Below, piece by piece: positions 29,475 through 49,248 of a stretch of DNA of 64,000 nucleotides. Position 1 is the stretch's first letter, and each line of letters opens with the position of its first letter. The translations under genes were made by a program, and so were the position numbers. The notes below the pieces were generated by a model. The model saw only the letters and a list, made by a program, of their open reading frames with translations, was not told where the DNA came from and made no database searches. Source of the DNA: Candidatus Poribacteria bacterium (GTDB taxonomy: Bacteria; Poribacteria; WGA-4E; JAJDTR01); the NCBI GenBank assembly GCA_965222225.1, contig CBDCTK010000002.1, positions 3,936,001 through 4,000,000 of the forward strand. Reading direction: 5' to 3'.

Positions 29475-29613
29475 GGCCCTTCAGAGTTAAATGTGGAAAT
29501 GAAATTAACTTAGGGCTTACGCAGTGACGCATCCAAAGGATTGTAGGAGCGATCTCCGAATCGCGACCTCCTATCGCGAGCAAAACTCGCTCCTACACAA
29601 GACGCGCAATAAA

Positions 29614-29712
29614 GGGAATTCTATCGATCAACCGACTGGATAAGGAGGGATCAAGCGTATGAATAATGAGTGCGATAGAACTCCGATAGTAAATCCCGTA
29701 CGATAGAGTTCC
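29614..29712. repeat. Nested mini-element cluster after an uninterrupted REP (29542-29597)
   Basis: Copy at 29649-29684 lies within the copy starting at 29626. Confidence 0.88.
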
Positions 29713-29942
29713 GGTAAAAATCCTTCTCCCGATCGCGACTTCCTGTGGAATCGCCAATCGTTAAATCGCCGATTTCCCTCCCGCACGCGCAAATTTGCCT
29801 TGAAACAGAATCAAGAGTTTTGATACACTTTCCCCCAACAACCAGTGTTCAAGCACCCGGATTGAAGGAGTACCAAGGGTTTTAACGCAATTCTGTTTAG
29901 TGGGAAAGACGCTCCTATGCGTTGGATTGGAGGTATACTTAG

Positions 29943-30483
29943 GATGAAACGTCAGTTCTGCATACCGTTGCTAGTCCTGTCCTGCTTCATTGCAGGCTGC
30001 AAAGCCGGCTTCATGAGTGCCCTTGTGGCACCGCAAGAGTGGAGCGAAAATTACGCGCTTCTTGAGGGAGCAACCTGCTCCGTTCCCGCAATGGCTGACG
30101 GCAATTTGGAAACCGTTGGCACAGCCAATCAACATTGGATCGTTGTTACCTTGCCAACCCGCAAACCGATTCACCGGATAGTCATTCGGGAAACAAATAT
30201 TGAAGATTTGATTATTTATGAGAATATCGGCGGAGAAGGGGAGTGGAAAAGAATCGACAAGATTAATAATAACCGTAAATCAACGATTGACATGCGAGTC
30301 AGCGTGGTGACAGACGGCATCCGATTCAAGATTGGAGAAACCTCCGACGACAAACGACTTGCAGGGGATTTCTCCTACCAAGAAAGCAGGGTAAAAAACC
30401 GACAAGTCAAGCGCGGCTACCCTACCGCACAAGAGATCGAACTCTACGGGTTTGTGCAAAAAAAGACCTCTAGCGACGAGTAA
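29943..30483 (+). CDS. Hypothetical lipoprotein (discoidin-like?)
   Basis: Lipobox IAGC; ends EIELYG. Confidence 0.7.
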
Positions 30484-30835
30484 ATCCTCAAGTCAAATCA
30501 TCGTAACTGTTTAGTTCAGTTAATAGAAGCGATAAAAGGGTGTCCCATCAGGGCAATGGCACCTGATTCTAGAGGATCCGCGATCATCAAATCGCAGATG
30601 GAATTCCCCGACGATCGCCAAATCACCGATTTCCCTTTTCTCTTTGCACGAGAATCAAAAGCCCCAGCGGGGCGACAGGTGTATAGAAACGTGGATTCAC
30701 CACACACCAAAGCCCCAGAGGGGCGGCAGATGGATAGAAACTTAAATGGCCGAAAAATGGCTTTTCTTCCTAAATTCAAACAGGCTCTAAACAGTTACAA
30801 TTCATCGAATGCGTCAAGGTCTCGGGGAGTGAGGG

Positions 30836-33640
30836 TCAACTGCCGCCTTGGGCTCGGCGTTTCGCTCTCAACAACCGCCCCATGTTTCCCTCGCCTTGAA
30901 ACGCTGCTGAAGCGTTACTCTCCTTTATCAACACCGGATTTATGGCGGCTGCCTGCCGAGGTATTGGCGCGCTTCTTGATATTCCAGCCGATTCCCCTTT
31001 GCGAGCGCTCAATCGGATCATCGTTCGGGTTGACTCACCTTTCTCGCTGCGACGAAACGCCGCAACTTGCTCCCGAAGTTGCGTGAAGTAACCGCTTGCC
31101 ACGCTAAATCGGCGAAGAATCATCTCAAGCACAAAGATAAGAATGCCCGCAATTAGAAGTGTATGCGAAAGTGATTCGGGCGTTTCGACTGAACTACCGG
31201 TATGCTTCGCAATTTGCTTGGGTGTAGGTTCATAAATGCCGTTCGTGCGGCTGGCGAGCGCCCCCAGAAGCTGATGGTTAGTTTCAAACTCGCCGTACTC
31301 CGCAGGGTATGAAAGCGCGAAACTCGCCTGCCTCGATCCGCTAACGAGACCGTCCCGCTTCATCTGGGCGGTGACCAAATAAACTCCGGTCTCCCCAATA
31401 GAAAATTCCCCGCTGAACCGTGTCGGCTTTTCCCGATGCATTTCGACAATTTCCCCCGCTCCCTTCGGCGGCGCGACGCGGACATCGAACCTCTGAACGC
31501 CAGAGGTAGCTTCGGCGTTGGCAATATCGATTACTATCCGCCCGATACCGCCGCGGTGAGAAACATCAAGGTCAAAATCCCTACTGTCTCCATGAACGGG
31601 CGCCGCCCAATTGACCACTTGTCCCCAAAACTTGCCAAACTGCTCCCATTCTATCCACTCCGCCGCCCATCCGGGTTTCACATCTGAGGTAAAGGCGGCG
31701 GATTTGCCGAAACCGTAATGCCATGTGGCGAGAATCGGATGCTCCTGGTGAGAACGGATATAAACCTGACTGTATTCCTTTTCCGAGGTTGCAATGTAAC
31801 CGTGCAGTCGTGGAAGCCGGAAAATACCCGCCATGATTGCCGAACCCTTCTCGCTAATTATCGGTTGAAAAGCCTCTTGAATCATGTATTTTTGGGTTTG
31901 CCTGACCTCATCCGCCAATATCTTCGGCAATTGATTTACATTGTGAACAGCCACATAGTTTCCTTGTCCTCGCTCCGCAATCGCTTGCATGAGGTTCTGA
32001 GCCGCATCGCCGATAGCAATCGTCGTCACATAGATGTCGTCAGCCGCGATCTGTTCCGCGAGTGTGTTAAAATCCCCGTCAGACCTGCCATCGGACAAAA
32101 GAATAAGATGTTTCTGTTTGGCATCGACCGCCTTGAGCATTTCGTACGCTCGTTTGAGTGCGGGGTACATTTTTGTGCCGCCGGTTGGGGCTAGTCCGCC
32201 AACTTCGCGGATAATTCTCTCATGATCCGTTGTGGGTGAGATATCCAACCCAATCTTGGTGGAAAAACCGATTACACCCGCCTTGTCCTCCTTATCAAGC
32301 TCGCGCACGCCCGCTCGGATGCCTTCAATCGCCAATTGAATCTTCTGATCCGCTCCGACGTAATTTGCCATGCTGCCGGATGTATCGATAACGAACATCA
32401 GTGCCATAGATTCTTTACGCTGCCGAGGCGTCATCTCGACAGGCAACGCTCGCTCCAAGGGTGTGTCGTGATAGCCGCCCATTCCGAATGCACGTTCCCC
32501 GCCGATTACAACCAATCCTTTTCCGAGATCGCGGACATAGCTCTCAATCAGATCCATCCGGGAATCTGAAAGATCATCAGCCGAAACATTATTCAGAATC
32601 ACCACCGCACTGCTTCGCAAATCGGCTAACTCGGTCGTGAATTCATGCGGCGATACGACATCCACCGCAAAACCGCTGGATTTGAGGACGCGCTGCAGCA
32701 CGTCGGTCTGTCCCGAATCACCCTCTACATACAACACGTGAGGTTGACCAATCACACTGACATAGCCGTAGGCCTCATTGTTTTCGAGAATGGCATCACG
32801 CACCGAAATTTTGAATTGGTACGTATAGCTCCCCTGTTCGTTGATTCGTTGGTCGGGCATTCTGATCTCCTGTTTTCCCGGTTTCAGCGTAATGGACTGC
32901 GGATCAGAAACCGGTGCGCCATCGCGATGCAGATGAATCTCCACCGGCTTGGCTCCCGTGCTTTCGACAATCGCACGCACGGCGAAAGTTTGACCGGATA
33001 TCACATGCGAATGAAGATGCAGGGCACGTACCCAGACCTCATCGGCTCTCTCGGAATTCAACGGGATTGTGAAGATCTCACTCCCACTCGCCCGCGCGAG
33101 GTCCAAGAGCGGCTCCAGATCGCCGGTATTCTGCAATCCGTCGCTCAGCAGCACGATTCGTCTCTGTCGATCGTCCGGTAGAATACGCAAGGCTAAATGG
33201 AGCGCGGCTGCGGCGTCCGTCGCATTGTAATCTAGTGCCGCTTCCGTCAAGGTGTCGGGGGTGAAATTCGGTTGTTCCATCTTCGGGCGCATGGGGGTGG
33301 AGGCTGTCGACTGCGCGGCGAACGGAATGACACTATACAGGTCGGTCGGCTCCAACTCATCAATTGCCGCATTGATTAGATCGATTCCCCTGTGCTGTTC
33401 TCCCGTTGGCACGCTCTCCGAAACATCCAAGAGGAAGGCGACAGCGAGAATCTCTTCGCGGTGATTCCTGTGCAAACCTGCCAGCGCCAGAACAAAACAC
33501 AGTACGGCAATCGTTCGCAAAACAAGCGTGGTCGATTTTCGCCATCGCGACGCTACGACTCGCGTGCCGCGATGGATAATCAGCAGTAGCGGAATGCTAA
33601 TGAATAACAACAAGAAAAGGGGGGTATCAAGGTGAGCCAT
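30836..33640 (-). CDS. Membrane-anchored double VWA + class I GATase-like domain protein
   Basis: BatA-like N-terminal TM; MIDAS DVSES and DTSGS; LLSDG twice; GGERAFGMGGY...LPV. Confidence 0.88.
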   Translation of the reverse strand: MAHLDTPLFLLLFISIPLLLIIHRGTRVVASRWRKSTTLVLRTIAVLCFVLALAGLHRNHREEILAVAFLLDVSESVPTGEQHRGIDLINAAIDELEPTDLYSVIPFAAQSTASTPMRPKMEQPNFTPDTLTEAALDYNATDAAAALHLALRILPDDRQRRIVLLSDGLQNTGDLEPLLDLARASGSEIFTIPLNSERADEVWVRALHLHSHVISGQTFAVRAIVESTGAKPVEIHLHRDGAPVSDPQSITLKPGKQEIRMPDQRINEQGSYTYQFKISVRDAILENNEAYGYVSVIGQPHVLYVEGDSGQTDVLQRVLKSSGFAVDVVSPHEFTTELADLRSSAVVILNNVSADDLSDSRMDLIESYVRDLGKGLVVIGGERAFGMGGYHDTPLERALPVEMTPRQRKESMALMFVIDTSGSMANYVGADQKIQLAIEGIRAGVRELDKEDKAGVIGFSTKIGLDISPTTDHERIIREVGGLAPTGGTKMYPALKRAYEMLKAVDAKQKHLILLSDGRSDGDFNTLAEQIAADDIYVTTIAIGDAAQNLMQAIAERGQGNYVAVHNVNQLPKILADEVRQTQKYMIQEAFQPIISEKGSAIMAGIFRLPRLHGYIATSEKEYSQVYIRSHQEHPILATWHYGFGKSAAFTSDVKPGWAAEWIEWEQFGKFWGQVVNWAAPVHGDSRDFDLDVSHRGGIGRIVIDIANAEATSGVQRFDVRVAPPKGAGEIVEMHREKPTRFSGEFSIGETGVYLVTAQMKRDGLVSGSRQASFALSYPAEYGEFETNHQLLGALASRTNGIYEPTPKQIAKHTGSSVETPESLSHTLLIAGILIFVLEMILRRFSVASGYFTQLREQVAAFRRSEKGESTRTMIRLSARKGESAGISRSAPIPRQAAAINPVLIKESNASAAFQGEGNMGRLLRAKRRAQGGS

Positions 33641-33760
33641 CGTAAAAGGGACGGATTATCTGACGCCTGCAAGACTTGCGCAAAGAGCAAAATTGGAGGA
33701 TTTAGCAAATTCCTTCGTGATGTGGGGATTGTCAAATCAAGGCTTCACGACGGTAGGAGG

Positions 33761-33837
33761 GATCAAGGGAGCGAATAGCGACCGCGATAGAGTTCTTCGA
33801 GTGAAGGCGATAGAAAATCCCGTGCGATAGAGATCCC
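33761..33837 (+). repeat. Mini-element cluster inside a GTAGGAG...CCGAATCGCGAC REP
   Basis: GATCAA GG GA GC GAATA GC GA CC GCGATAG AGTTCT plus closers. Confidence 0.85.
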
Positions 33838-33905
33838 CTCCGAATCGCGACTCCGAACAATCATGATAACACGGGCCTCGCGCCGATCTTAGGAAGGATT
33901 GTGAA

Positions 33906-33978
33906 TGGAGCAGACGGGATTCGAACCCGTGACCTCATCCGTGCGAGGGATGCGCTCTCCCATCTGAGCTACGGCCCC
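33906..33978 (-). tRNA. tRNA-Ala(CGC), duplicate with an acceptor-stem mismatch
   Basis: Cloverleaf with G3:U70 and anticodon CGC; position 6 is C here and A in the other copy. Confidence 0.85.
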
Positions 33979-34091
33979 ATATGGCGGTGCTTCTTGAACG
34001 AAGTTCGAACGACCTATGAGCGAAGTCCGCTGGACTTCGCGCACTGATTCGCTGCGCCATCCTCGCTTCGGGGCGGAAATTTTTCGCGGTA

Positions 34092-36705
34092 CTATTCAAT
34101 CACTATATCCAAACCAGAAAACTCATCAAGCTCGCGGGATACAGCAAGCCTAACTTCATTGGCTTTCTTGTATCGTTCTGCTATTTGCCTTTGGGCTACC
34201 ATATCAAAATTACCATCGTTGTCGACTGGAATTGATATTGTTATTTTCTTTATGTCGTTAATCCTCAGGTTATTATTTGCGCTATATCCCATATTCCCGA
34301 TTTCTTTTTCAATAATATTAAGCATTGTCTGCAAAAACTCATCATCTAAATTTTTCCTAAATTCTTCCTTCAAAGAAAATTTGGCAATCCTTTGGTTTAA
34401 ATAAAATTTCCCCTCATCCCTCCACTTAGTTAGCCTGAAAAACGAACCGGATAGAGGGAGTAAATAATCACCCTTCGTTACACGGAATTTATCGTTAATC
34501 TCAATATTCTTTGGATAACGCACCAATTTTGGATTTTTCCCCGATAAGTTTTGAATCCGTATTATGGGGATATCTGATTCCTTTGCCGTGAACAGACTCT
34601 TTTTGAAAGTGAAACCAGAGACTACATCAAAAATTTCATCAATGGTTTTCTCTTTATACGAAAAGTCCTTTTTTCTATCAATAAGGTCTGCGACCTCCTC
34701 TCTGTATTCAAAAATACGATCAGCTACATCTTCTAATAGCTGGGGGAAATTATCGATGGCAATAGTTTTCTGTTCTTCCAGAATACCGAGTTTAATTTTT
34801 TCTTCCTCGCTCCACCATTTATCTACCAGCCAATCTTTTTCAATGCCGCTGATGAATTTTTCAATTGGTAGAACTTTACATCGATCATCAGAATTTATGT
34901 TCTCAAAACGGTTCTTATTTGCTCTAAAGAAGGAAAATAACGTTACTGCTTCCTGAAGGTCGTTTTGCTCACTACTGAATCTGTAAATATCCCGCGTTTC
35001 ACCTATTTCACTGACCAAGTATGTAAATACAGGTTCTTTTTGCTGTTCTGGTTTCAACTTTTTGGTGATACCAAGAATGTACGTCTTTTTGGAGGTTGTA
35101 AAGAATGTGTCTTTTGGCAGTGAAATTATTGCATCAATAAAACACTCGTCTAAAATGAAGCGCCTTAAATTTTTGTCATTTTGTCGATTAAGAATCCCAT
35201 CTGGAACTATCACAAAAGCTTTGCCCCCGGGCTTGAGAGCTCTAACGACCCATTCCATAAATAAGCCTTCAACACCCATGGCGTTTATTTTGTAATAGTT
35301 TACAAGTTTGCCATCCTTTTTAATTTCTTCTTTTAAGTTACTACTTCCCTTGGTGACATAAGGCGGATTTGTCAAAATTAACTCGTATCCATTTTCTACT
35401 GGATCTGATAGCGACCCTAGAATGGAATTTGTTTTCAGCATAAAAGTTTTGTTGAATAGCTCTGAGAATTCCTTAGTAAGTCCGGGATTTTCCTTTATTA
35501 AGTCTGAAAAATAGATGAGCATATTAGCCTTTGCCAATATGATTGTCTTTTGCTCATCTCTATCGAATCCCTTATCAAAACCTTCGATTGTAATCTGAGG
35601 GTGTATTCCTTTCTTATCAATCTTATAGAGTTCATCAAGTCTCGTAGCGAGCGGTTCTAGAAGGAATTTCCCGACGCCACAAGCAGGGTCGCAGATTTTT
35701 TTGCCCTTCTCAATTTCACTTTTTGCCATCTCCACGATGGCACGGACCACTTTTAGAGGTGTGAAAAATTGCCCCCAATTTTTCTTAACTAATGCTCTCC
35801 TTGAGAAAACTCTCAAAAAGTTTGCTCTTAAAATCGAGGTCGATGTGTTCAAGTTTTTCGTATTTAATAAACTTTTCTAAAACAGTTTTAAATGTTGTGC
35901 TATAACCCTTTACTGCTTTTTGATCTTTACTGACAAAAATTGTCCCGTTAATAATTGTTGTCTTGTCAACTGGATTTTCTGGAAATAAATCTTTGATTTT
36001 CTTTCTCACAGTATCCGCGTAATGCTCTAAAACTTCATTTTCTGTATTTTGATTGTACATTTCTGCAAGTGTATAGAAATTATGCGTTCCCTTGAGTACA
36101 CCTAGATCGCTCAGGTATTTGAATATAAAAAGCTCAACAAAAGTATACAAACAATTTTCAGGCGTCGCTCCACTGACTGACCAAATATCCTGCCAAATAC
36201 TTTTGGCTAAATCGGTTGGGTTAATAAGTTGCTTTGGTTTTATATTATCATTAAGTTCATTGATTGAATCGTATATTTTTTCAAGTAAATCAATGACTTC
36301 TTCTGATTTTGGATCGAATGGTGTTCGGATCTCATTCCCAGCCCAGTCCTTTACTCTATTTTCTGTGGCAGGATTCACCCAAACTCCATCTTTAGTATCG
36401 GTGGCAATGAATATTCTGGCTCCGAGTTTTCGTGCAACTTCGATCTCTTGCTTGACCGCTTGTTGTTTTTGGACGTTTGTTCTAAAGTCAGACGGCTTTT
36501 TATATTCAATAACTGCGATGATGTTTTTCCTTTGTGCTATCAAGGCATCTATTTTCTTTTTTTCAACTTCTCCATAATCAACGTTGCGAATAATTCCGTA
36601 TTCTTTGAGAGATTTGACGGACGTAGCACCTATATTATAAAAATCCCACTTGCCGATTTTATCCGGGCTTTTTACAAGATTCCGTTGTAATAATTCTTCA
36701 CTCAT
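34092..36705 (-). CDS. Fused restriction-modification enzyme (nuclease-like N-terminus + N6-adenine MTase + TRD), frameshifted near 35787
   Basis: KIDAL...IEYK, DPACGVGKF, NPPY and an HsdS-like C-terminus; low GC; removing one T restores ESISKKNWGQFFTP. Confidence 0.82.
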
Positions 36706-36881
36706 ATAATTTTCGGCTAATAGTTTATCCACAGTGGCTCCAAAAACTTTTGTAATAAGCCTTAGAGTGACCACGGTAGATTTTCTGTTGCGCTGTTCTA
36801 TAAAGTGGTCCCATTGTCTAGACCATACCGGATTGTATTGAAGGGACCGTTATGCAAATAGGCGAGAAACCGGGGACGGGG

Positions 36882-37244
36882 TTATGAGGAAGCGTTTTGC
36901 AGCGCTTCCACTTTTTCCCGCAGTTGTTGAATTTCGGCTCTGATTTCCTTCCAGTCTCTTTCCTTATAGGCAATAACGATTTGGGGGATTGCTACGGCGG
37001 CGGCTATTAGACCAATGAGCGCAATCTGCAGGAGTTGTAAATCGCCAATTCTGTTATTCAGGTTTTTTTCCGCAGCGTCAATTCTAGTATTCACAGCGTC
37101 AATTTTAAGATCGATATACTCCCTCGTGCGCTTCTCGAACGCTGCGATTTCTTCTTGGATTACAGCTCGCAGATCCGCCTTCGTCAATTCAGCAAAGGCT
37201 GGTGATGTCAGAAGCAGTAGGGACAGGATTGTTATGCACTTCAT
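36882..37244 (-). CDS. Small signal-peptide / coiled-coil / TM protein
   Basis: MKCITIL... signal peptide, heptad region, then a TM helix. Confidence 0.7.
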   Translation of the reverse strand: MKCITILSLLLLTSPAFAELTKADLRAVIQEEIAAFEKRTREYIDLKIDAVNTRIDAAEKNLNNRIGDLQLLQIALIGLIAAAVAIPQIVIAYKERDWKEIRAEIQQLREKVEALQNASS

Positions 37245-37375
37245 GATTGGATCTTCTTTCTTCTGTTTCGACCAAACACGCCGTATTGTCGGGAATCGCA
37301 ACTCACTTCGGTACGACCAATCCTGCACCGTCGCGATAATTCGAGCCTCGCGCCGATCTTAGGAAGGATTGTGAA

Positions 37376-37448
37376 TGGAGCAGACGGGATTCGAACCCGT
37401 GACCTCATCCGTGCGAGGGATGCGCTCTCCCATCTGAGCTACTGCCCC
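37376..37448 (-). tRNA. tRNA-Ala(CGC)
   Basis: GGGGCAGTAGCTCAG...CATCC-CTCGCAC-GGATG...GGTTCGAATCC...CTGCTCCA. Confidence 0.95.
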
Positions 37449-37528
37449 ATATGGCGGTGAATTACCAATCTTTGCTCGAACCCATTCTGAACGAAACAAC
37501 TGACGCTGCGCGCTGACTTTTGCTTGTT

Positions 37529-37795
37529 TCAACGGTGAGGGCAACCGGGCCAACAACAAGGTCGCCGCTTTCCCTCTATTAGCTCCGTGCGTACTCGCTC
37601 AATATGACATCTTCTCGTCTCCGGCTTCTTGACGGCTGTAACCCAGCAAATCCATTCATTACGCGCGAGTGATGTAAGGTCATTCCACGCGTCTCGCACC
37701 GCGTTCGCAGAAATAAGGGCCTCGCGTAAATCCGCTGGCACTCTATGTACCACGCCAGTGGCGATTCCTTTTTTGGTCATAAGATTATTAGACAT
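37529..37795 (-). CDS. YdeI/OmpD-associated family protein
   Basis: VPADLREAL...LARNEWICWV...KKPETR...RRPCCWPGC. Confidence 0.85.
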   Translation of the reverse strand: MSNNLMTKKGIATGVVHRVPADLREALISANAVRDAWNDLTSLARNEWICWVTAVKKPETRRCHIERVRTELIEGKRRPCCWPGCPHR

Positions 37796-38168
37796 CCTTC
37801 CAAAATAATCTCGGACCCCGATGGCGTCTGCCTTTGCTCTAATTGGCTTGGGAATAATGCCAATCGTCAGAACTCCGATGCCACCTGAATTTTGTCCATT
37901 ACATTGAGTTTATTATGACAAATGTCTATTCTTTTAGCGAATAGACCACTAACAAACCCAAAACTTAATAACATTAAAAGTCCATTATGATTAAAATGAG
38001 AAAAATCTCGCTTTTGGCTAAAAGAAAGTTCGAGCCGATATTTTTTCAGGTTCTTTGGCAGTTTTTAGAAACGGCAGGTCGACTGGCGGTGGCAGGCGCG
38101 CGAAAATTGCATCCGCCGCCTTCAAAATCAGTTCGAATTTTGTCGAATGCACACCGCCAGTTCGGAAA

Positions 38169-38258
38169 TGGCGGAGAGAGTGGGATTCGAACCCACGGTG
38201 CAGTTGCCCGCACAACAGTTTTCGAGACTGTCCAGTTCAACCACTCCTGCATCTCTCC
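38169..38258 (-). tRNA. tRNA-Ser(CGA)
   Basis: ACAGT-CTCGAAA-ACTGT, long variable arm, encoded CCA. Confidence 0.95.
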
Positions 38259-38264
38259 GCAGGT

Positions 38265-38711
38265 TCAACGACGCTCATGGAAGAAGGATTGAAGCAGAGC
38301 ACGACTTTCCTCGTCCAACACGCCTTTAACGACATTCACTCTGTGATTTAACCGCTTGTCTTGTAATATATCAAATATGGTGCCTGCAGCGCCGAACTTC
38401 GGCTCCGAAGCCGCGTAAACGACCCGCGGGATTCGCGCCAAGACAATCGCTCCGGCGCACATTGGGCAGGGTTCCAAGGTGACATATAACGTCGTATCCG
38501 TTAGCCGCCAATCCCCAACGCACCGCGACGCTGACCGAATGGCAAGCACTTCCGCGTGTGCCGTCGCATCCTCCGACTGTTGGCGTAAGTTATGCGAACG
38601 GGAAAGAACAACGCCCTCTCTGACGATTACGGCTCCAACGGGAACCTCGCCCATTTTGGATGCTTGCCGCGCAAGTTCAAGGGCTTCACGCATCCAGAAC
38701 TCATCTGACAT
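38265..38711 (-). CDS. tadA: tRNA adenosine(34) deaminase
   Basis: GEVPVGAV, TAHAE and TLEPCPMC motifs. Confidence 0.93.
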   Translation of the reverse strand: MSDEFWMREALELARQASKMGEVPVGAVIVREGVVLSRSHNLRQQSEDATAHAEVLAIRSASRCVGDWRLTDTTLYVTLEPCPMCAGAIVLARIPRVVYAASEPKFGAAGTIFDILQDKRLNHRVNVVKGVLDEESRALLQSFFHERR

Positions 38712-38768
38712 ACTCAAACGCGAAGTTAAGTGTAGGCAACTGTCCCTATGATGCGGCGTTAGCCTACC

Positions 38769-38834
38769 TGTAGTAGGCATACTCCGTATGCCGTAACCCT
38801 TGTGCAGACTACGGCGCCGCGGAGTCTACCTACT
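38769..38834. repeat. REP-like double hairpin; inverted relative at 57858-57924
   Basis: GTAGTAGGCATACTCCGTATGCC...CCTACT. Confidence 0.7.
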
Positions 38835-38840
38835 GCGCTA

Positions 38841-38914
38841 AGCGCCTGAGAGGATTCGAACCTCCGGCCTTCTGATCCGTAGTCAGATGCTCTAATCCAC
38901 TGAGCTACAGGCGC
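38841..38914 (-). tRNA. tRNA-Arg(ACG)
   Basis: TCTGA-CTACGGA-TCAGA anticodon arm. Confidence 0.95.
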
Positions 38915-38920
38915 AACTAA

Positions 38921-39009
38921 TGGCGGAGAGGATGGGATTCGAACCCATGGTACCACTGAGGCACAACTGCTTAGCAGGCAGCCCGATTCAACCGCTCTCG
39001 CACCTCTCC
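38921..39009 (-). tRNA. tRNA-Ser(GCT)
   Basis: Anticodon GCT, long variable arm, CCA. Confidence 0.95.
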
Positions 39010-39026
39010 ACACGTGTTCCAAACAT

Positions 39027-39114
39027 TGGCGGTGGGAGTAGGATTCGAACCCACGGTACCTTGCGGCACAACGGTTTTCAAGACCGCCGCTTTCGACCAC
39101 TCAGCCATCCCACC
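39027..39114 (-). tRNA. tRNA-Ser(TGA)
   Basis: GCGGT-CTTGAAA-ACCGT, CCA. Confidence 0.95.
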
Positions 39115-39128
39115 AAAATTGCCACTTT

Positions 39129-39194: not shown

Positions 39195-39424
39195 AGAGCC
39201 TGTTTGAAAAGTACAGTAGGGTGCGCACTGCGATCAAGCGAATGAATAATGAGCGATCAACTGACTGATTAAGGAAGGCGATAGTGAATCTTGATAGAGC
39301 TCCCTGAGAAATCCCGTGCGATAGAAATCCTGACAGGTATGTAGTAGCCAACAATGAAAACATGAAAAAACTTTCAACAAATGACCAAAAATGGCTTTGC
39401 CACCGATTATTCAATCAGGCTCTA
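39195..39424. mobile_element. MITE-like element containing a nested mini-element cluster (39232-39331)
   Basis: AGAGCCTGTTTGAA...TTCAATCAGGCTCT ends; the REP GTAGGGTGCGCACTGC is interrupted by GATCAA. Confidence 0.65.
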
Positions 39425-40522: not shown

Positions 40523-40570
40523 GATCAAGCGACCGCATAGGGAGCGCGATAGAGTTCCCATCGAGATCCC
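40523..40570 (+). repeat. Hairpin mini-element
   Basis: GATCAA GC GA CC GCATA GG GA GC GCGATAG AGTTCCC. Confidence 0.9.
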
Positions 40571-40636
40571 CACGAGGTGTATTTCCAATAACTTCAGGCG
40601 TTGAAAACTGACCAGAATTAGTCGGATTTTATTACT

Positions 40637-40792
40637 TAACCCAAGTTGTCACCTTTGTAGCACAATCTGTTAGATTGTGCTTGTGATGCGCAAACTGACA
40701 GTTTGCGCCACGAAATCTCCGCAATTAATGAACTATTCTCAATTAAAAACGGTGGTGCATGTCTAAAATCTTGTAAGTAGCAACTTGGGTTA
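40637..40792. mobile_element. MITE with 12-bp TIR TAACCCAAGTTG
   Basis: Perfect TIR, internal hairpins, second copy at 29338, end fragment at 16548-16572. Confidence 0.75.
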
Positions 40793-40794
40793 TT

Positions 40795-40836
40795 TAAATC
40801 TCCTTCATTCCTGTCTAAAGGATGGAGGTAAGTTCA
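40795..40836 (+). repeat. 42-bp dispersed direct repeat (also 47354-47395 and 55686-55727)
   Basis: TAAATCYCCTYCATTYCTGTCTAAAGGATRGRGSTAAGTTCA. Confidence 0.8.
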
Positions 40837-40977
40837 AAGTTCAGGCTGACATGGAAAGGAAATCTTCCTCCCTTCCATACTTCCATACTTCCATACTTCC
40901 AATCTCATTCTTCCTGCTGGTCGCTCCGGAAGATAGTCATTAATACTGAAACTTGCTTAATGAGTTGAAAGATAGAC

Positions 40978-42147: not shown

Positions 42148-42511
42148 GTGTAATACACCCGAAAACTAGACAGTTTAAAAAGTCTATTTCCCACTAGCAA
42201 ATCCCTTGTCATCTGTGCGATAATATGGCACATAAAAGTCATTTGTACTTCGATAGGATAGATTGTCCAGATTTCCTGCCTTGAATTCCCTTCAATTTCG
42301 TTTCAAGGACAAGGCAAGTTCAGGTGCGTTTCCCGAGCACAATGATACTCCAATTGTGAGTTTTTCACTCTCGCGCAAATGTCGAGTTTCGCGAAAGACT
42401 TATTGGGTCAAGTGATGTCCCCGCCCACACCAAAAGAACGAGACATAAGTGAGATATTTCTGATTAAGGTTTACGGTTTCGACCTCAAGAAATCGTTGTG
42501 TTGTATAGAAG

Positions 42512-43555
42512 TAGGAGTTACGCAGTTGGCTGAAGCGTATAAAGAGGTTGTGCCAAATAAGCCCGTACCGCATCTCTGACAATAGAGAGTTTTGCATCAA
42601 ACCAACTGATACCGGTATGATAGCAATAGTGCTCAATTCTCAGAAAGGCTCTCAGCGCTAAACCGATATGATTTCTTTGAGTGCGAGCAGAGCGCACTTG
42701 TGCGCGTTCAATGCCAACAAATTGCTTAATCCCGCGATGATATTCTTCTATTGTCCAAGACCATTCGGCATATTTGAGACGCGTCAATTCGTCCATCTGT
42801 AAATCATTCGTTGCCCAATATTCAATGTCACCTTCTGGAGTGTCAACCTTAAATACTCGAATCAATCCATAGCCTTTGAGATGGACAATTGTACCTGTTG
42901 ATTCACTCGGAAGCGTACTCACCGGACGGTTACCGGAATAATCTTTACTGACAAGTCGGTTGGCAGCTAGACGAGTAAGCCACTTCCAACCATGACCTCG
43001 CACCGCTTTTAGATTCTTTAGACTGGCATACCAACTATCAAAACACACACATTCAGGAGCAAAACCGCGTGTTTTCGCTTCTTCAAGCATGGCGCGGAAA
43101 TGCTCATTCTTCGTCAAGCCGTCTTTGGCTTTATCATAGATTCGATAATCACACGGAATATGTCTATCGCCATCCGTCCAGAGCAAAGTGACCAAGTTAA
43201 TCCCATTCACAACTCGGTGGTGTTTCCCTGACCAGTGTTTTGTCACGAGTTCAATCTTTTGTGAATAAGGTTTATCCAGAGTCGAGTCATCTATAACTAA
43301 AATTCCGGATTCTAATTTCACCTGATTTCTCGATTCTTGCCACAGTTTGCCAGTATCGGGTTCCTCTCGATGCAAGAGCCGTGTTATCGAATCGTGAGCC
43401 GGAGGATTATCAGCTTGGGGTTGAACTTTTTCCGATTCAAGACAACTGTAACTTTTCTGAGCGGCTACCAAGAAATCAATATAGTCAGTGTCAGTATATT
43501 TAGGGGGATTCATACTCAAATTATAACCTATTTTCACTCAACTGCGTAACTCCTA
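42512..43555 (-). mobile_element. IS701-family IS, complete
   Basis: Perfect 17-bp TIR TAGGAGTTACGCAGTTG; 5-bp target duplication AGAAG (42507-42511 and 43556-43560). Confidence 0.9.
42518..43513 (-). CDS. IS701-family DDE transposase
   Basis: LVIDDSTLDKP, FDSWY and WTIEEYHRGIKQ motifs. Confidence 0.9.
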   Translation of the reverse strand: MNPPKYTDTDYIDFLVAAQKSYSCLESEKVQPQADNPPAHDSITRLLHREEPDTGKLWQESRNQVKLESGILVIDDSTLDKPYSQKIELVTKHWSGKHHRVVNGINLVTLLWTDGDRHIPCDYRIYDKAKDGLTKNEHFRAMLEEAKTRGFAPECVCFDSWYASLKNLKAVRGHGWKWLTRLAANRLVSKDYSGNRPVSTLPSESTGTIVHLKGYGLIRVFKVDTPEGDIEYWATNDLQMDELTRLKYAEWSWTIEEYHRGIKQFVGIERAQVRSARTQRNHIGLALRAFLRIEHYCYHTGISWFDAKLSIVRDAVRAYLAQPLYTLQPTA

Positions 43556-44206
43556 AGAAGAAACAAAGTATGGCAGAAAAGAAGCACGCTCGTGTTAGAA
43601 CCCTGAGCAGTTTTATGAAATGGGCAATACAATTCACAGATGGACAATATCTTTTTCGAGGCGTCTCAAATGACACCTATAAAATAGAAGCATCTGCCTA
43701 TCGACGCTTGCCAAAAGAAGACAGAGAGGATCCGGGTAAACTCCTCACGATTACTCAAGAGTTAATAGATAGTGCGCGGTCTTTAGGGCATGATCGGAAT
43801 GAAGGTCAACCCCGGTCGGACTTAGAGCTACTCGCCCACCTCCAGCACTACGGAGCGGCTACTTGCCTAATAGACTTCACGCGCGACGTGATGGTTGCAC
43901 TCTGGATGGCGAGTCAACAGAGCACAAAAGAAAAAGACAAAAAAAAGAAAAAAGCAAAAGGCAAAGTGTTTGCGGTACGGAGCGACAATCTTTCCCAGTT
44001 CAGAGTTGTTTCTGACGAACAACGACGCTGTGCGAAAATTGGGGATTTTTTCGAGCAAGAAAACAAGAGGTATCCGCTCTATCAATGGCAACCCAATTAC
44101 CAGAATAACCGCATCATAGCTCAGGAGTCCGTCTTTATTTTTGGCAGTGCAGACGTTCCGGTAGAAGCAGAGTGCATTATTTTACCAAGTGCCAAGCAAA
44201 AACTTT

Positions 44207-45455
44207 CGGAATTAGTAGCTTGTAGCTTTTAGACTGACGACAAACATAAAACTTGGTACCCTGTCGTAAATCTTTTCGTCACACGTAGATGTCCATAGTG
44301 ACTATTCTTCTCGTAGGAGTTTGCTATGGACATTTTGAATCTTATGAAAGAGTTTCCAAATCAAGAATCTTGTCTCAGATTTATAGAGGAAAAACGTTGG
44401 AAGGACGGTGTTTGCTGTATCCACTGTGGCAGTGAAAAAGTTGGACGCAAGAACAAAAACGACATTACTACTGGTTGGAATTGCTACGATTGTGAATCTA
44501 GCTTTTCGGCTACAGCAGGAACCATCTTCCATGGTACCAAGATACCTCTCCAGAAATGGTTTTTGGCTATCTCAATTCTTTCCAATGCCAAGAAAAGCAT
44601 ATCGAGTTGTCAGCTTGCTCGTGACTTGGACATGAATCAAAAGTCCGCTTGGTATATGGCAATGCGCCTCCGTGAGAAAATGAGTGATAGTGATGAATTG
44701 CTGAAAGGGATAGTTGAAGCGGACGAAACCTATGTCGGCGGCAAACCCAGAGCAAAATCTAAGAGAGGTAGAGGCACAAATAAATCTCCCGTCATCGGCG
44801 TAGTCGAGAGAGGCGGTCGGGTGGTTGCTAAATTCATGAAGGTTCTATCTGGTGAAAATATCAGAGAATTCATCCTTAGCAATGTCTCACCCGATGAGTC
44901 TATTCTTATGACTGATGAATTTCGCTCTTACAATAGTCTGGACGAAGATATCGAAAGACATGTTATCCATCACCAAGAGAGATATGTTTCTGAGGACGGC
45001 GTAACTCACACCAACACCATCGAGTCGTTTTGGGCTTGTGTCAAGAGGTCATTCTACGGAACGCATCATCACTACAGCAAGAAGTGGCTGCCACTGTATA
45101 TCATGGAGTCTTGCTGGAAATATAATCGCAGAAAAGATGATGAGATTTTCATAAGATTTTTTGATGAATGCTTCACCTGAGCCACATGAATTGTTTGGCT
45201 ATCGGTATATTCTGTCAACGACAACATCATGGTGTGCTGAAAATCCCATAGTGTTGGAAATTAAAATCCCGCAGATAACCCGCAATGCTCCCGCGAGCAT
45301 GTACAAACGCTTGGTCAACATGATATGCCTCCATTTCTCTCTTATAGAGATGTATTTTAGTGTGAATCAAGATTCCGAACACTGTCTAAAATGATTGTAC
45401 ATTAAGAAGAGAAAAGCAAGCAAATCGACCAAAAAGCAGTTAACTACTAAGTCCC
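44207..45455 (+). mobile_element. IS1595-family IS, complete
   Basis: Imperfect TIR GGAATTAGTAG / CTACTAAGTCC; 8-bp target duplication AAAACTTT (44199-44206 and 45456-45463). Confidence 0.9.
44326..45180 (+). CDS. IS1595-family transposase
   Basis: Zn ribbon, GTIFHGTKIPL, VEADETYVGG, MTDE and HTNTIESFW motifs. Confidence 0.93.
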   Translation: MDILNLMKEFPNQESCLRFIEEKRWKDGVCCIHCGSEKVGRKNKNDITTGWNCYDCESSFSATAGTIFHGTKIPLQKWFLAISILSNAKKSISSCQLARDLDMNQKSAWYMAMRLREKMSDSDELLKGIVEADETYVGGKPRAKSKRGRGTNKSPVIGVVERGGRVVAKFMKVLSGENIREFILSNVSPDESILMTDEFRSYNSLDEDIERHVIHHQERYVSEDGVTHTNTIESFWACVKRSFYGTHHHYSKKWLPLYIMESCWKYNRRKDDEIFIRFFDECFT

Positions 45456-45719
45456 AAAACTTTTAACAGATCTATATCGAATATCAGGTATCTCCGAAGC
45501 AAGCATTTATCCTGACTTTGACGGTTTTGTCAGCCAACATGCTTGGAATAAGCCGTATCGTGAACCGGACGCATTAAACATATTGCAAAAAGGAATGCAG
45601 GCGGTCCAAGGAGAAAAACGGGATGAGAGTACCCCGTCCCCCGATGTAGGTCCGTTGCGTGATCCCCAATTACCTGAAGCTACCTCGATTGAAGCGCCAA
45701 AGCCACGAGGAGAGAAAAA

Positions 45720-47258
45720 ATGAATTCACAAAGCATAGCCTATTTCAATGAAGCCATTGCTCTTTTACAACCAGGTGACCCCACTCTCGTTACTGCGCAT
45801 CATAACCGTGGCTTTGCTTACTTCCGACAAGGCGATTATAAACGTGCTCTTGAAGACTACACCAAAGCGCTTGAACTTAGACCCGATGACGTGGAAATCT
45901 ATTTCGATCGCGGCATTGCTCATTTCCATAACCGCGAATTTGACTACGCAATTCACGACTATACCGAAGCGCTAAAACGAAAGCCCGACTATGTAGAGGT
46001 TTATCATAACCGGGGTGTTGCTCATCGTATCAATCGTAACCACGATAAAGCTCTTAAGGACTTTAACAAGACCATTGAATTGAAACCATATTATTCCACA
46101 CCTTATAACAGTCGCGGCCTTGTATTCTATCAACAAGACAATTTGGACCGTGCCATCAAGGACTTTACCAAAGCAATTCAGCTAGATCCGAATTATTTCG
46201 AGGCTTTTTGCAATCGCGGCGTTGCGCGCGATGCTAAAGGAGCCCACGATCAGGCGTTCAGGGACTACTCGAAAGCAATACATCTCAATCCCAATTATAC
46301 CGAGGCGTATTACAATCGCGGCCTCGCTTATGTCACCATGAGAGACTATGATTCTGCAATTCGGGACTTTACCAAAGCAATAGAATTGCGATTTGATTTT
46401 GCCGAGGGATATAACAGCAGGGCGGTTGCCTATGACTACAAAGGCGAATTTGATAGAGCAATTCAAGACTATAACAAAGCGATAGAACTTAGACCTAACT
46501 ACACCGAAGCATATGTTTATTGCGGTATTGCATTGAGCAAGAAGGGCGAGATTGGTAGAGCAATTCGAGGCTTTAACAAGGCTATAGAACTTCAACCGAA
46601 TTACGCTATCGCGTATGTCAATCGCGGATTAGCGTACTACAATTCAGGAGATTCCAATCATGCTCTTGAAGATTACGATAAGGCGATAAAGTTCGATCCG
46701 AGTCTCGCTCAGGCCTATAACAATCGTGGCAACGTACACCGGCGAAACGGGAATTATGACCGTGCCTTCTTGGACTATAACAAGGCAATTGAGCTAAAGC
46801 CGGATTATGCCGAGCCTTACAACAATCGCGGAAATGCTTACAGTGACAAGGACGAGCATGAGCGTGCTATCGAAGACTATTACACGGCGATAAAACTCAA
46901 ACCAGAGTTAGCCAAGCCGTATAGTAACCGTGGTGTTGCGTATTTCCACATGGGGGAGACGGAACTTGCCATTGAAAACTATAACAAAGCAATAGGACTG
47001 GCCCCCGATGATGGTGATACCTACTACAATCGTGCTGAGGTGTGGTTACATCGGAGCCAATGGGAGGACGCCCACGAGGATTTGAAGATTGCTAAAGGCA
47101 AGGGCACGGATATCATTGCTGCATTCCAGAACGACTACCAAAGCGTCAAGGACTTTGAGAAGAAAATCAATGTTGAACTGCCCACACATATCGCTGATAT
47201 GCTGACGAGCGAACTGCCTAGGAGTGCGATTACCCCAAAAAACCAGCCGGTCGAATAA
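45720..47258 (+). CDS. TPR-repeat protein (partner or C-terminal part of the FRG gene)
   Basis: About 13 AYxNRG TPR units; C-terminal GxDIIAAF...LPxxIAxML tail shared with 50893-53034. Confidence 0.9.
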   Translation: MNSQSIAYFNEAIALLQPGDPTLVTAHHNRGFAYFRQGDYKRALEDYTKALELRPDDVEIYFDRGIAHFHNREFDYAIHDYTEALKRKPDYVEVYHNRGVAHRINRNHDKALKDFNKTIELKPYYSTPYNSRGLVFYQQDNLDRAIKDFTKAIQLDPNYFEAFCNRGVARDAKGAHDQAFRDYSKAIHLNPNYTEAYYNRGLAYVTMRDYDSAIRDFTKAIELRFDFAEGYNSRAVAYDYKGEFDRAIQDYNKAIELRPNYTEAYVYCGIALSKKGEIGRAIRGFNKAIELQPNYAIAYVNRGLAYYNSGDSNHALEDYDKAIKFDPSLAQAYNNRGNVHRRNGNYDRAFLDYNKAIELKPDYAEPYNNRGNAYSDKDEHERAIEDYYTAIKLKPELAKPYSNRGVAYFHMGETELAIENYNKAIGLAPDDGDTYYNRAEVWLHRSQWEDAHEDLKIAKGKGTDIIAAFQNDYQSVKDFEKKINVELPTHIADMLTSELPRSAITPKNQPVE

Positions 47259-47953
47259 GGTGTATTTCCAACAGACAAATCTGCCATTACCTATGCGATA
47301 ATGCTACACTGAGACGCACTTTAGACGTGCCAGGCTCAAGCAGATTTCCACCTTAAATCCCCTCCATTTCTGTCTAAAGGATAGGGGTAAGTTCAACCCA
47401 CAATCCCTCTGCTTATTGCAATTGCCGGTTTATGATGGAAACTTACCACCAGCGTAACCACAAATGAGGATATCAAAGAACTCAAGGCTGACATGCTAGA
47501 GATTCGGTAAATGCTTTTCACCCACATGAGCGACGAAGAAAAACACTCCTGAAATCACATTCTATTCATCAAATCCCGCGATGCATCGCGTCACGTCTAC
47601 TGCATTACATGCTGCGTCCTGTTCTCGCACGCGCAAAGGAGGTGTATTGTGCAAACACACTGTTGTTGTCCCAAATGGTACGATGTCCTTGATTTAGACC
47701 CGTATTCGCCCTGATCGACAAATATGAGGCACAGCCCGTCTTTAGCAAGGGCTTTAGTATTTATCAGCCCTGCTTTATGTGCCAGAACGACGATCGAATC
47801 CCGGAAAACCCCTACGCAATTGACGAATTCAATGCTAAGGAGTTGTTTGGCGAATTGCCACACCCCGAAACGTTGAATCTATATTTCGTTGGTACCAACG
47901 ATGGCAACTTTGGGACGCAGGGCGTGCATCACCCACCCATTCTTGAAGGGTGC

Positions 47954-48028
47954 GATCAAGCGACTGATTAAGGAGACCAAGCAAGCGAATAGCGCGCGCG
48001 ATAGAAAATCCCGCGCTATTGAGATCCT
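47954..48028 (+). repeat. Two nested mini-elements
   Basis: GATCAA GC GA CT GATTA AG GA [GACCAA...AAAATCCC] GC GCTATTG AGATCCT. Confidence 0.85.
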
Positions 48029-48236
48029 GTTGCCGCGTCCTGTAACGAGTTGACCACGTAACCCGCCGCGTTAATATGCACTTGCGATCTTCGGCAGATG
48101 CCCCTGTGGTTGCTGCCCGCAGTCTTACCTATCGGAGGTAGTGCGCGAGGATACCCAAACTCCAGACGCGGGGATGAAGTGCGCGCTATTTGTAATCACT
48201 AAGGTCGGGGTTAACTTGGCGATTTCGCCATTCAGA

Positions 48237-48668
48237 TTAGGTGCTCTCGTCTTGATGGGGGCGCAACTGTTCGTCAACGCTATACTTTCCCGCGCCAATC
48301 ACGATTAAACTCAAGAAAACGATTCCGAGTTCGATGGCATGCGAGGCACCGCTCAGACCATCACCTCGACTCAGATGGCTAACAGCAGCAACCAGCATGG
48401 TTATCGTCAAGAGGATACAAGCCGGTCGAAAAACTATGCCGAGGATTAGACAGACACCGCCAAAGAACTCGGAAATCGCTGCCATGAATCCCCAGAATGC
48501 CGGCAAGAACCCGATGCCTAGACTCGCCATTGCCATGCCAATCTGTGTCCATTTCTCCGCGCCGCCAAATAGTTTGGGCGCTCCGTGAACGATGAACATC
48601 AACCCGATTCCGATGCGGAGCACTAAAAGACCGGTGTGCCTATGCTTGTTCAAAAATGTCAACACCAT
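48237..48668 (-). CDS. DoxX family membrane protein
   Basis: LRIGIGLMFIVHGAPKL, EFFGG and GAGKYSVD motifs. Confidence 0.9.
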   Translation of the reverse strand: MVLTFLNKHRHTGLLVLRIGIGLMFIVHGAPKLFGGAEKWTQIGMAMASLGIGFLPAFWGFMAAISEFFGGVCLILGIVFRPACILLTITMLVAAVSHLSRGDGLSGASHAIELGIVFLSLIVIGAGKYSVDEQLRPHQDEST

Positions 48669-49077
48669 TTCCCTGATTCTCCTTTCCTGCGATGGGTCAA
48701 TAGACCTTAAGGGAGACGACCAATGCTACGCTTCGCTTTAGCCGTCGCCGCGGCAGGGAGTGAAACTTATGCCGTTTAAACTCATCCGTTGAAATATAAT
48801 CTCCCCGGCTGGTTATGGTTGGTGCAATCTATAGCCTTTTGCTTCAAAAAGCGGAAGTCACCGGGTAAGACGGACGGGCTATGCGTGCGCCTCTCGGGAG
48901 ATTGTGATTGTCACGGTAACATAGCTGGTATACACTGTCAACAGTATAGACATTTACATTAATGTTTACACATATTGCGGTCTACAGGAAAGCAGACGAC
49001 CAGACGGACGCAAAATGAATGGAATAGAAATGTGCGATTTGATGATAGAAGATTGTGATGACAAACCGACTGTAGGA

Positions 49078-49248
49078 GATCAAGCGAGTGGTTAACGAGT
49101 GCGATAGAGATCCCTCTCCGAATCACGACCTCCTATCGCGAGCAAAACTCCCTCCTACAGAAGACGCGTAATAAAGGGATTTCTATCGATCAACCGACTG
49201 GATAAGGAGGACGATAGTAAATCCTGATCGCTATTCGCTCCCTTGATC
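49078..49248. repeat. Mini-elements inside a REP (49078-49114) and inside a reverse copy (49188-49225 within 49176-49248)
   Basis: Paralogous to locus 29542-29700, giving empty/filled comparisons. Confidence 0.9.

Follow-up and report, generated by a model that had tools for sequence, protein, structure and literature searches.

A 36-Nucleotide Noncoding Hairpin Element of Poribacteria That Copies Itself into Other Repeats 3′ of G without Target Duplication

INTRODUCTION

A 64,000-nt stretch from the genome of a sponge symbiont, Candidatus Poribacteria (assembly GCA_965222225.1, contig CBDCTK010000002.1, positions 3,936,001 to 4,000,000; here called the window) contains short hairpin repeats that occur both with and without an insert of about 36 nt. 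How did these inserts get there, if nothing at the target was duplicated? The original prediction, made from the letters of the window, was that the inserts enter mostly at G^CGA, duplicate nothing, and move by chemistry other than that of DDE transposases. Filled and empty sites were compared in the window and in the whole host genome (G000; 5.64 Mb plus a 63-kb contig, 50% G+C), and the insert was traced among 176 Poribacteria genomes. The inserts form one family of ~36-nt noncoding mobile elements with the consensus (G)ATCAA-hairpin-GCGATAG-AGATCC(C). Our comparisons show strand-specific copy-and-paste 3′ of G, with no duplication, a small and reproducible loss of target bases, and selection on a hairpin formed by a single strand.

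RESULTS

Filled and empty sites in the window

Three comparisons from the first reading of the window hold as they were described. In the first, an empty repetitive extragenic palindrome (REP) at 29542-29562 reads TGTAGGAG|CGATCTCCGAATC (also given as TGTAGGAG|CGATCTCC), and its filled counterpart at 49071-49125 reads TGTAGGAG|ATCAAGCG...GAGATCC|CTCTCCGAATC, with the insert lying between TGTAGGAG and CTCTCC. A CG present in other filled copies of this REP (GGAGCGATCAAG...) is missing from this one. In the second, the element at 49188-49223 is uninterrupted, while its counterpart at 29626 is split by a second copy (29649-29684), after which the outer copy's own tail, GATAGTAAATCC, resumes; read another way, the pair shows a clean insertion of 34 nt at G^CGATAG. 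In the third, GCCCCAGAGGGG|CGACAGG is contiguous at 29237-29255, and the same 12 + 7 bases enclose ATCGAGCG...GAGATCC at 10430-10483. The flank shared by two different variants was likewise confirmed: GAAAGCGCCAGCGGC precedes one at 50516 and another at 62524 (reverse strand).

Copy number and genomic location

The consensus was built by anchoring on GCGATAGA (1,143 sites) and spans 36 to 37 nt, (G)ATCAA-NN-GA-NN-G(A/G)ATA-NN-GA-NN-GCGATAG-AGATCC(C), a unit far too short for protein coding; GCGATAGAGATC is the most frequent 12-mer of the genome (283 copies). An IUPAC pattern of the element with at most 2 mismatches matched G000 1,006 times, and the reversed-pattern control matched 0 times. The nhmmer program found 1,428 matches, 547 of them near full length and only 3 on the 63-kb second contig; many are interrupted at model position 21 or 24 by a further, nested copy. 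At Rfam gathering thresholds no family matched the element, the sole matches being six tRNAs.

Outside open reading frames (ORFs) lay 1,085 of 1,169 copies, as judged with a crude ORF set spanning 80% of the chromosome. The copies fall into 743 clusters; 290 hold more than one copy, in a single orientation in 227 and mixed in 63. Unique 32-nt flanks on both sides were found for only 9 of the 547 full copies, and therefore the element lives almost wholly inside other repeats. It sits mostly in GTAG-type REP hairpins or in older copies of itself; at least five unrelated families serve as hosts in addition to the element itself, and the unit boundaries are the same throughout.

Insertion 3′ of G without duplication and with loss of target bases

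With 12-nt anchors on both sides, an empty paralogous site was present for 160 of the 547 near-full-length copies. Twelve events whose sole "empty" partners held more than 12 extra bases were dropped, leaving 148 events and 145 distinct filled strings. None of these 145 comparisons contained a flanking direct repeat, which extends the predicted absence of target duplication from the window to the genome; a few positive overlaps of 1 to 2 nt at junctions are simple ambiguity. The net gain was 34 nt in 68 distinct filled sites, 35 nt in 36, 33 nt in 15, and 36 nt in 6.

The left junction is sharp. The G before ATCAA was shared with the empty site in 101 of 145 cases and nothing was shared in 8; a mismatch just before the junction made the other 36 unreadable. 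A logo of 63 distinct target sites gave G at −1 (95%), C or G at −2, G at −3, and C at +1 (65%); it kept only events whose left junction lay at most 1 base from position 1, a selection that inflates G somewhat. The preference is for G^C within GSG^C, not for the predicted G^CGA as such; that CGA so often follows the cut reflects mainly the element's own G^CGATAG, the target used most. The element enters its hosts in one orientation.

The right junction is lossy: usually 1 to 3 target bases are replaced when base 37 is counted as element, rather than the 0 to 2 first proposed. Apparent losses of 4 to 6 bases are upper bounds, as extension was by exact match only. At a given site the outcome is reproducible, +35 in 10 of 10 cases at GCACTGCG^CACC and +34 in 14 of 15 at GGGTGCG^CACTG. 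In 43 strict cases of nesting after G24, the outer tail resumed with CATAG in 21, GATAG in 4, CGATAG in 0, and otherwise in 18.

Independent copy-and-paste insertions

The REP-A family, GTAGGGTG-CGCACTGC-GCACCAGCC, has 219 instances in the genome. It is empty in 106, carries forward heads only in 48, reverse heads only in 1, and both in 4; 57 hold other inserts with no head, and 3 have a shorter (0 to 7 nt) middle segment. The original prediction would fail if filled alleles were ancestral and empty ones deletions, but the 106 empty REP-A instances against 48 with forward inserts speak for insertion. So do six different element variants at one REP-A position (site 2), 29 identical variants (35-mers) found in two or more unrelated contexts, and a canonical self-target that is intact in 600 copies. 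Among the 43 nestings, 42 outer/inner combinations were distinct. These insertions are independent and recent.

No trace of excision was found. The scar G|ATAG was found 0 times, compared with 600 intact and 76 nested self-targets, and the corresponding REP-A scar 0 times, compared with 62 exact empty copies. Donors are not excised, and mobility is copy-and-paste.

Three other routes were tried and rejected. Simple replication slippage predicts tandem identical heads, but nestings join different variants. A tyrosine-recombinase crossover in the shared CGAT core with a circular form predicts the core on both sides of the insert, which was not observed. Pairing of the left flank with the tail, as a guide supplied by the target, was no better than chance (longest complementary run, mean 2.73 versus 2.77 in shuffled sequences).

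A covarying hairpin on the GATCAA strand

The unit folds, with RNA parameters, as a three-tier hairpin (positions 2 to 28) followed by an unstructured, pyrimidine-rich 3′ tail of 7 to 9 nt. In stem I, A2-T3-C4 is paired with G26-A27-T28. Above it come an internal loop (AA/GC) and then two covarying 2-bp stems with a tandem G·A step between them, capped by the loop G(A/G)ATA. The loop and the G·A step are motifs that we take to be a "GNRNA-type loop" and a "sheared tandem G·A." With position 1 left free, 518 copies carry G there in 480 cases, A in 32, and C in 6; position 37 in the same set is C in 310 and T in 155.

Covariation among the four NN positions defines two 2-bp stems, one on each side of the tandem G·A step. 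Among the 329 distinct heads (from 845 strict heads), each of the four stem pairs was Watson-Crick in 59 to 81%, compared with 30 to 46% after shuffling. Among the 28 distinct copies of the window, 97.3% of stem cells pair, versus 61.1% in shuffled sets, none of 500 of which equaled the observed value; slid controls gave 19 to 57%. Among the 329 distinct heads, G·T pairs numbered 176 and A·C pairs 60. With RNA parameters, all 3 copies examined fold better as the GATCAA (top) strand than as its complement. The excess of G·T over A·C and the better fold of the top strand together identify the GATCAA strand as the structured one.

Nesting provides a relative clock. In 49 distinct nestings, mismatched stem cells numbered 25 of 196 in the outer (older) copies and 7 of 196 in the inner copies (P = 0.0014). 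Inner copies are better stemmed than outer ones, and therefore the hairpin matters at copying and decays afterwards: pairing on the GATCAA strand is selected when a copy is made and is then lost. An outer GGGATC/GATCCC stem was ruled out as an essential part, since copies in another genus (g4, below) have TCTTC or TTTTC tails.

Distribution among Poribacteria

Two hundred or more copies were found in only two genera among the 176 Poribacteria genomes. All 10 genomes of genus g1 are high copy (708 to 1,457 copies), as are all 4 of genus g4, which belongs to another family (233 to 256 copies); seven other genomes have 1 to 21 matches. The g4 copies keep the head and GCGATAG and end in TCTTC or TTTTC. 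Because these tails differ, the 3′ GATC is dispensable, and the two genera carry diverged subfamilies.

Separately, all 21 matches in genome G059, of the otherwise element-free genus g6, lie on four contigs (C72, C83, C91, and C116), which may be misbinned from a co-occurring g1 organism.

We compared 80 kb from each of three relatives (G001, G002, and G003) with the window region. Genes were 76 to 90% identical, with a few weaker, paralogue-like matches in G002; intergenic DNA was hardly alignable, and these comparisons therefore count lineage-specific content rather than site-by-site polarity. Of 18 syntenic gaps, 11 held heads in G000, 7 in G001, and only 4 in both. In a search for a conserved master copy, 30 loci around G012 copies were compared with G000. 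Of the ~20 that could be mapped, 2 correspond to a G000 gap that also holds an element, which we read as chance level given that about one-fifth of G000 gaps hold one. The stretch is contained in 20 sequencing runs from 9 studies; short contigs of four runs break at the repeats, and none bridges an element site, either filled or empty.

Orientation

The GATCAA strand coincided with the strand of negative local GC skew in 465 of 680 single-orientation clusters (Fisher P = 1.6e−21). No consistent tie to the direction of flanking genes was seen (249:163 in ++ gaps and 180:142 in −− gaps).

The GC skew of the chromosome (C2) itself changes sign every ~0.5 to 1 Mb and shows no two replichores, a pattern that could come from rearrangements, misassembly, or another cause.

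Search for a driving enzyme

Five matches to Y1_Tnp (HUH) occur in G000. These genes are flanked by their own GTAG REPs, and the element adjoins them only inside those REPs; none of the five has the element as its own flanking repeat, and none is distributed as the element is. The L089 type is present in 37 of 61 genomes, some of them from families that lack the element; in 2 of the 4 g4 genomes it was not found. The L090 type is limited to G000, G005 (99% identical), and part of G009. Close homologues of the L093 type (63 to 77% identity) occur only in g1, where they are flanked by other REPs. No Y2_Tnp match was found, in a search whose controls were equally silent.

The sole reverse transcriptase (RT)-like gene has a weak Pfam score and occurs in 6 of 10 g1 genomes (with stop codons in several) and in 1 of 4 g4 genomes. 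Among 184 head-to-tail pairs lying 250 to 6,000 nt apart, neither a recurrent length nor a common interior pointed to an autonomous relative, and a collection of viral contigs gave 0 matches to the element.

Other features of these candidate genes were noted. The RT-like gene is a 679-amino-acid ORF (G000:C2:4499560-4501599) with no elements nearby and may be a defense-type RT. An IS200-like Y1 gene with a 165-amino-acid frame (G000:C2:3080209-3080962) is flanked by inverted GCCCC-AGN-GGGGC-GACAGG hairpins, the host of the third window comparison, and may be the REP-associated tyrosine transposase (RAYT) of that hairpin; one of its flanks already carries the element. A 257-amino-acid Y1-like gene (G000:C2:2563962-2564735) is 99% identical between G000 and G005, compared with ~85% for genes common to both, which suggests recent transfer between species.

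Copies and neighboring features in the window

The copies and reference sites of the window are collected in Table 1. Two repeats of ~140 to 150 nt that resemble miniature inverted-repeat transposable elements (MITEs) lie at 29335-29475 and 29476-29627, the second containing the REP-B doublet; both are multicopy here and in other Poribacteria genera (e.g., 85 to 97% identity in G000, G002, G009, and G015). The closest relatives of a 404-amino-acid ORF at 27885-29099 are in Candidatus Poribacteria assemblies (91, 81, and 79% identity); the window is not cyanobacterial, even though its GATC-rich repeats would point that way. A ~6-kb segment (42148-48225) with four ORFs (42518-47258) corresponds to 78 nt in G001 between the same flanking genes and may be a lineage-specific island. 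Six minus-strand tRNA genes lie in 33906-39114, five of them within 37376-39114, and element stacks stand on both sides of the cluster.

Table 1. Element copies and reference sites, in window positions; most rows come from nhmmer matches
Feature	Coordinates	Strand	Source
Nested stack with three heads (585, 604, and 627) and tails reaching 739	585..739	+	nhmmer and sequence
Copy, position 1 = C instead of G	3340..3370	−	nhmmer
Full copy	3619..3654	+	nhmmer, model 1-36
Full copy	3996..4032	−	nhmmer, model 1-37
Full copy (8281-8317), then nested stack with heads at 8318, 8335, and 8358	8281..8400	+	nhmmer
Copy with 13-nt tail variant (GCGATAGTAAATCC)	9720..9756	+	nhmmer
Copy with variant tail	9797..9833	−	nhmmer
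Filled site of third comparison, between GCCCCAGAGGGG and CGACAGG	10441..10477	+	sequence and nhmmer
Internally deleted copy in another host hairpin of the third-comparison type	10682..10702	−	sequence and nhmmer
Copy	14148..14184	+	nhmmer
Copy truncated at 3′ end	16475..16499	+	nhmmer, model 1-25
Copy (18872-18901) and head (18932-18955) within GTAGGAGC REP	18865..18955	−	nhmmer
Cluster, one full copy and extra tails	25975..26060	+	sequence and nhmmer
Empty site of third comparison, GCCCCAGAGGGG^CGACAGG, junction 29248/29249	29237..29255	+	sequence
REP-B doublet (GTAG tagged), empty loop, junction 29549/29550	29541..29598	+	sequence
Nested pair, outer 29626-29648 and 29685-29696, inner 29649-29684	29626..29696	+	sequence and nhmmer
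Cluster inside REP-B copy	33761..33837	+	sequence and nhmmer
Nested stack at REP-A site 2 (left flank cgcactgc)	39232..39330	+	sequence and nhmmer
Full copy and extra tail; G001 and G002 gaps too diverged to align	40523..40570	+	nhmmer
Degenerate nested pair	47954..48010	+	nhmmer
Filled site of first comparison, loop of REP-B copy (49071-49125)	49078..49114	+	sequence and nhmmer
Uninterrupted counterpart of outer copy at 29626	49188..49223	+	sequence and nhmmer
Head fragment	49228..49248	−	nhmmer, model 1-21
Copy behind flank GAAAGCGCCAGCGGC	50516..50551	+	sequence and nhmmer
Three-copy cluster in 302-nt gap; G001 counterpart 97 nt, no head by the pattern used	57713..57830	+	nhmmer
Copy, position 1 = A	58429..58465	−	nhmmer
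Different variant behind flank GAAAGCGCCAGCGGC	62488..62524	−	sequence and nhmmer
Full copy, then extra tail	62573..62609	−	sequence and nhmmer

DISCUSSION

A tentative mechanism and its rivals

The mechanism that we tentatively favor is copy-and-paste via a single-stranded form, in which an element strand is copied in from a nick, probably at the replication fork. The target would be nicked 3′ of G, and the new 3′-OH would be extended on (or joined to) a single-stranded copy of the element. That template would more likely be DNA, because no reverse transcriptase tracks the element family. The nascent hairpin would fold, and the new end would be sealed to downstream DNA after the loss of a few target bases. 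Forks at which REP hairpins extrude would be the most likely sites, and the enzyme would act in trans, not being encoded by the element. HUH and tyrosine-recombinase chemistries give exact junctions. One sharp junction, one lossy junction, and the lack of excision fit target-primed copying better than such exact strand transfer.

Several observations weigh against nick-primed copying. No enzyme was found among a handful of candidates, a narrower test than a full phylogenetic profile, and no single-stranded or free intermediate was observed. Priming on the top strand implies a bottom-sense template, yet the wobbles mark the top strand as the folded one, so that in this model the fold has to form in the nascent product. 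The unit also keeps the same boundaries in widely different hosts, which free template switching explains less well than cleavage of a defined unit does; with no enzyme found, these constant boundaries keep an HUH model alive. Nearest-neighbor folding gives the hairpin little stability (−0.8 to −3.1 kcal/mol as DNA and −4.3 to −7.8 kcal/mol as RNA), with z-scores of +0.7 to −1.7 and no significant gain over shuffled sequences; the case for structure therefore comes from covariation and not from energy. The strand bias may be inherited from the host repeats, as empty REP-A and REP-B copies show the same bias (REP-A odds ratio, 0.14). Nearly all elements sit in a fixed orientation within such hosts, so that intrinsic and inherited bias are not separable; the copies with unique flanks (9 of 547) are too few for an orientation test (3:3 and 2:1), and GC skew, irregular along the chromosome, is only a proxy for fork direction. 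Many copies have also been multiplied passively within composite REPs: for example, the 18 copies at REP-A site 1 represent 6 distinct heads.

A classical HUH mechanism is a doubtful alternative that nevertheless deserves weight. A RAYT or a Y1 enzyme of the IS200/IS605 kind would cleave the folded element at both ends and transfer it 3′ of a short single-stranded DNA target at the fork. IS200/IS605 elements insert without duplication, have subterminal hairpins, and show replication-related bias, and the element shows insertion without target duplication, a conserved hairpin with conserved flanks, strand-specific entry 3′ of a fixed base, and an orientation bias against GC skew that it shares with the GTAG REPs. 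The genome has five Y1_Tnp genes, and the targets are REP hairpins, the substrates of RAYTs. Such an enzyme should not, however, leave an inexact right junction at which 1 to 3 target bases are replaced, reproducibly per site, nor is the complete lack of scars (0 versus 600 self-targets and 0 versus 62 REP-A copies) what excision would give. The element has one hairpin instead of two and no GTAG tag, the Y1 genes have their own flanking REPs, the distributions of L089, L090, and L093 do not match that of the element, and the Y2_Tnp search, like its controls, was silent. Of the original prediction, non-DDE mobility fits, in that terminal inverted repeats with target duplication are absent; the further step from absent duplication to an HUH enzyme or a tyrosine recombinase is not supported, given the lossy right junction, the missing excision scars, and the lack of a linked or codistributed gene among the five Y1 genes.

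A route through RNA seems improbable. A processed, top-sense RNA of ~36 nt would be reverse transcribed at a nicked target or via a product like multicopy single-stranded DNA, which would explain copy-and-paste without scars, the tolerance of G·T (G·U) wobbles on one strand only, the better fold of the top strand with RNA parameters, and one sharp junction beside a loose one with small target loss; the tandem G·A and what we take to be a GNRNA-type loop are common RNA motifs. Yet the only RT-like gene is weak, patchily distributed (6 of 10 g1 and 1 of 4 g4 genomes), and has no elements nearby, element orientation is independent of neighboring gene direction, and no Rfam family matches.

We also give little credence to passive spread as the whole explanation, that is, amplification of composite REPs by their RAYTs together with gene conversion or replication template switching between repeats. 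Composite REP-plus-element units have clearly been amplified, one variant recurring 24 times between the same flanks; no more than 9 of 547 copies have unique flanks, none of the candidate enzymes tested fits, and the hosts are hairpins, where forks would be expected to stall. Passive processes would nevertheless have to produce the same boundaries in at least five unrelated host families and in the element itself, six variants at one REP-A position, and 42 distinct combinations in 43 nestings, from flanking homology of 1 to 4 nt, probably too short for homologous conversion. The intact hairpin selected in younger copies argues for a structure-dependent step.

That filled sites are ancestral and empty ones precise deletions is hardly credible: partial deletions between short direct repeats do occur (e.g., a tail standing alone in one REP-A copy and, at 10682-10702, a copy with an internal deletion), but the empty form prevails in every host family (106 of 219 for REP-A) and forms a complete REP hairpin, different variants share a position, inner copies are better preserved than outer ones, and, since insertion removes 1 to 3 target bases, deletion could not restore the canonical sequence and should leave a scar that was seen 0 times.

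Relation to known repeats

In searches of the literature, neither the element nor small repeats of Poribacteria were found described. Its closest analogue is the group of cyanobacterial small dispersed repeats (SDR4 to SDR6, especially SDR5, of Nostocaceae), for which Elhai et al. (2008, Genome Res 18:1484) is reportedly the defining paper. Our comparison with the SDRs uses the descriptions of them in citing papers.

In those descriptions, SDR5 measures 21 nt and enters the short G/C-rich motif GCGATCGC precisely, between its bases 3 and 4, by a mechanism still called unknown (PMC4390886, PMC5861425, and PMC13756078); a 2026 paper calls its function unknown as well (PMC13756078). As far as these accounts go, both kinds are very small noncoding repeats that behave as mobile insertions and encode nothing, and the preferred site of the element, G^CGAT, resembles GCGATCGC. 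The element differs in its length (36 nt versus 21 to 27 nt), in its phylum, and in its massive self-nesting; compared with SDR5 so described, its insertion point lies one base earlier in the motif, and it replaces 1 to 3 target bases.

With REPs, bacterial interspersed mosaic elements (BIMEs), and REP doublets forming hairpins (REPINs), which depend on RAYTs (Y1 HUH), the element shares short, imperfect-palindrome intergenic copies in the hundreds, a lack of target duplication, and the strand bias of the genome's own GTAG REPs. REP and REPIN hairpins, in the passages of PMC3733652 that describe them, carry a conserved GTAG (or CGTC) tag at one end. The element consensus, (G)ATCAA...GCGATAGAGATCC, has no GTAG or CGTC tag abutting the stem. 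Insertion sequences that target REP hairpins have been described by Tobes and Pareja in 2006 (PMC1525189); as summarized there, they likewise prefer REP hairpins as landing sites, but they are full-size and encode a transposase, unlike this 36-nt element, which encodes nothing. Unlike REPINs, the element forms no inverted doublets and is typically nested on the same strand, with mixed orientation in only 63 of 290 multicopy clusters, and among the five Y1 genes there is no cognate RAYT flanked by it or codistributed with it. The element parasitizes REPs and is not one of them.

The IS200/IS605 family and its miniature derivatives are built on the same single-strand logic, with no duplication on insertion 3′ of a short sequence, a hairpin near the cleaved ends, and a replication-linked orientation bias. 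The element differs in having a single hairpin, a target of one base (three at most), a right junction that is not exact, and no excision, and its structured strand is opposite to that expected from IS608. Unlike a MITE of a DDE transposon, the element makes no target-site duplication of fixed length, and its sole terminal symmetry (GATC...GATC) is missing in g4 copies. Unlike retroelements, it is accompanied by no reverse transcriptase, the one weak RT gene occurring in 6 of 10 g1 and 1 of 4 g4 genomes.

What the element means for Poribacteria

Ever since 2008, when the cyanobacterial small dispersed repeats were described, mobile DNA this small has reportedly remained an unsolved curiosity. 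The Poribacteria family is a much richer data set: each of ten species in one genus has about a thousand copies in its genome, and a second genus carries a diverged subfamily. It offers clear empty sites, nesting as a relative clock, and a covarying structure, which make the mechanism directly testable. The 18 gaps compared between G000 and G001, of which only 4 hold heads in both, also show that parasites of parasites quickly rebuild the intergenic DNA of these uncultured symbionts, which is relevant for assembly, binning, and strain typing.

A bolder proposal, unlikely as we now see it, is that this 36-nt "nano-element" represents a new class of mobile DNA that has no enzyme of its own and hijacks lagging-strand synthesis or nick repair. 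A nascent 3′ end stopped after G in an extruded hairpin would copy a single-stranded element from elsewhere and would then be religated. If so, hairpin repeats would breed further hairpin repeats.

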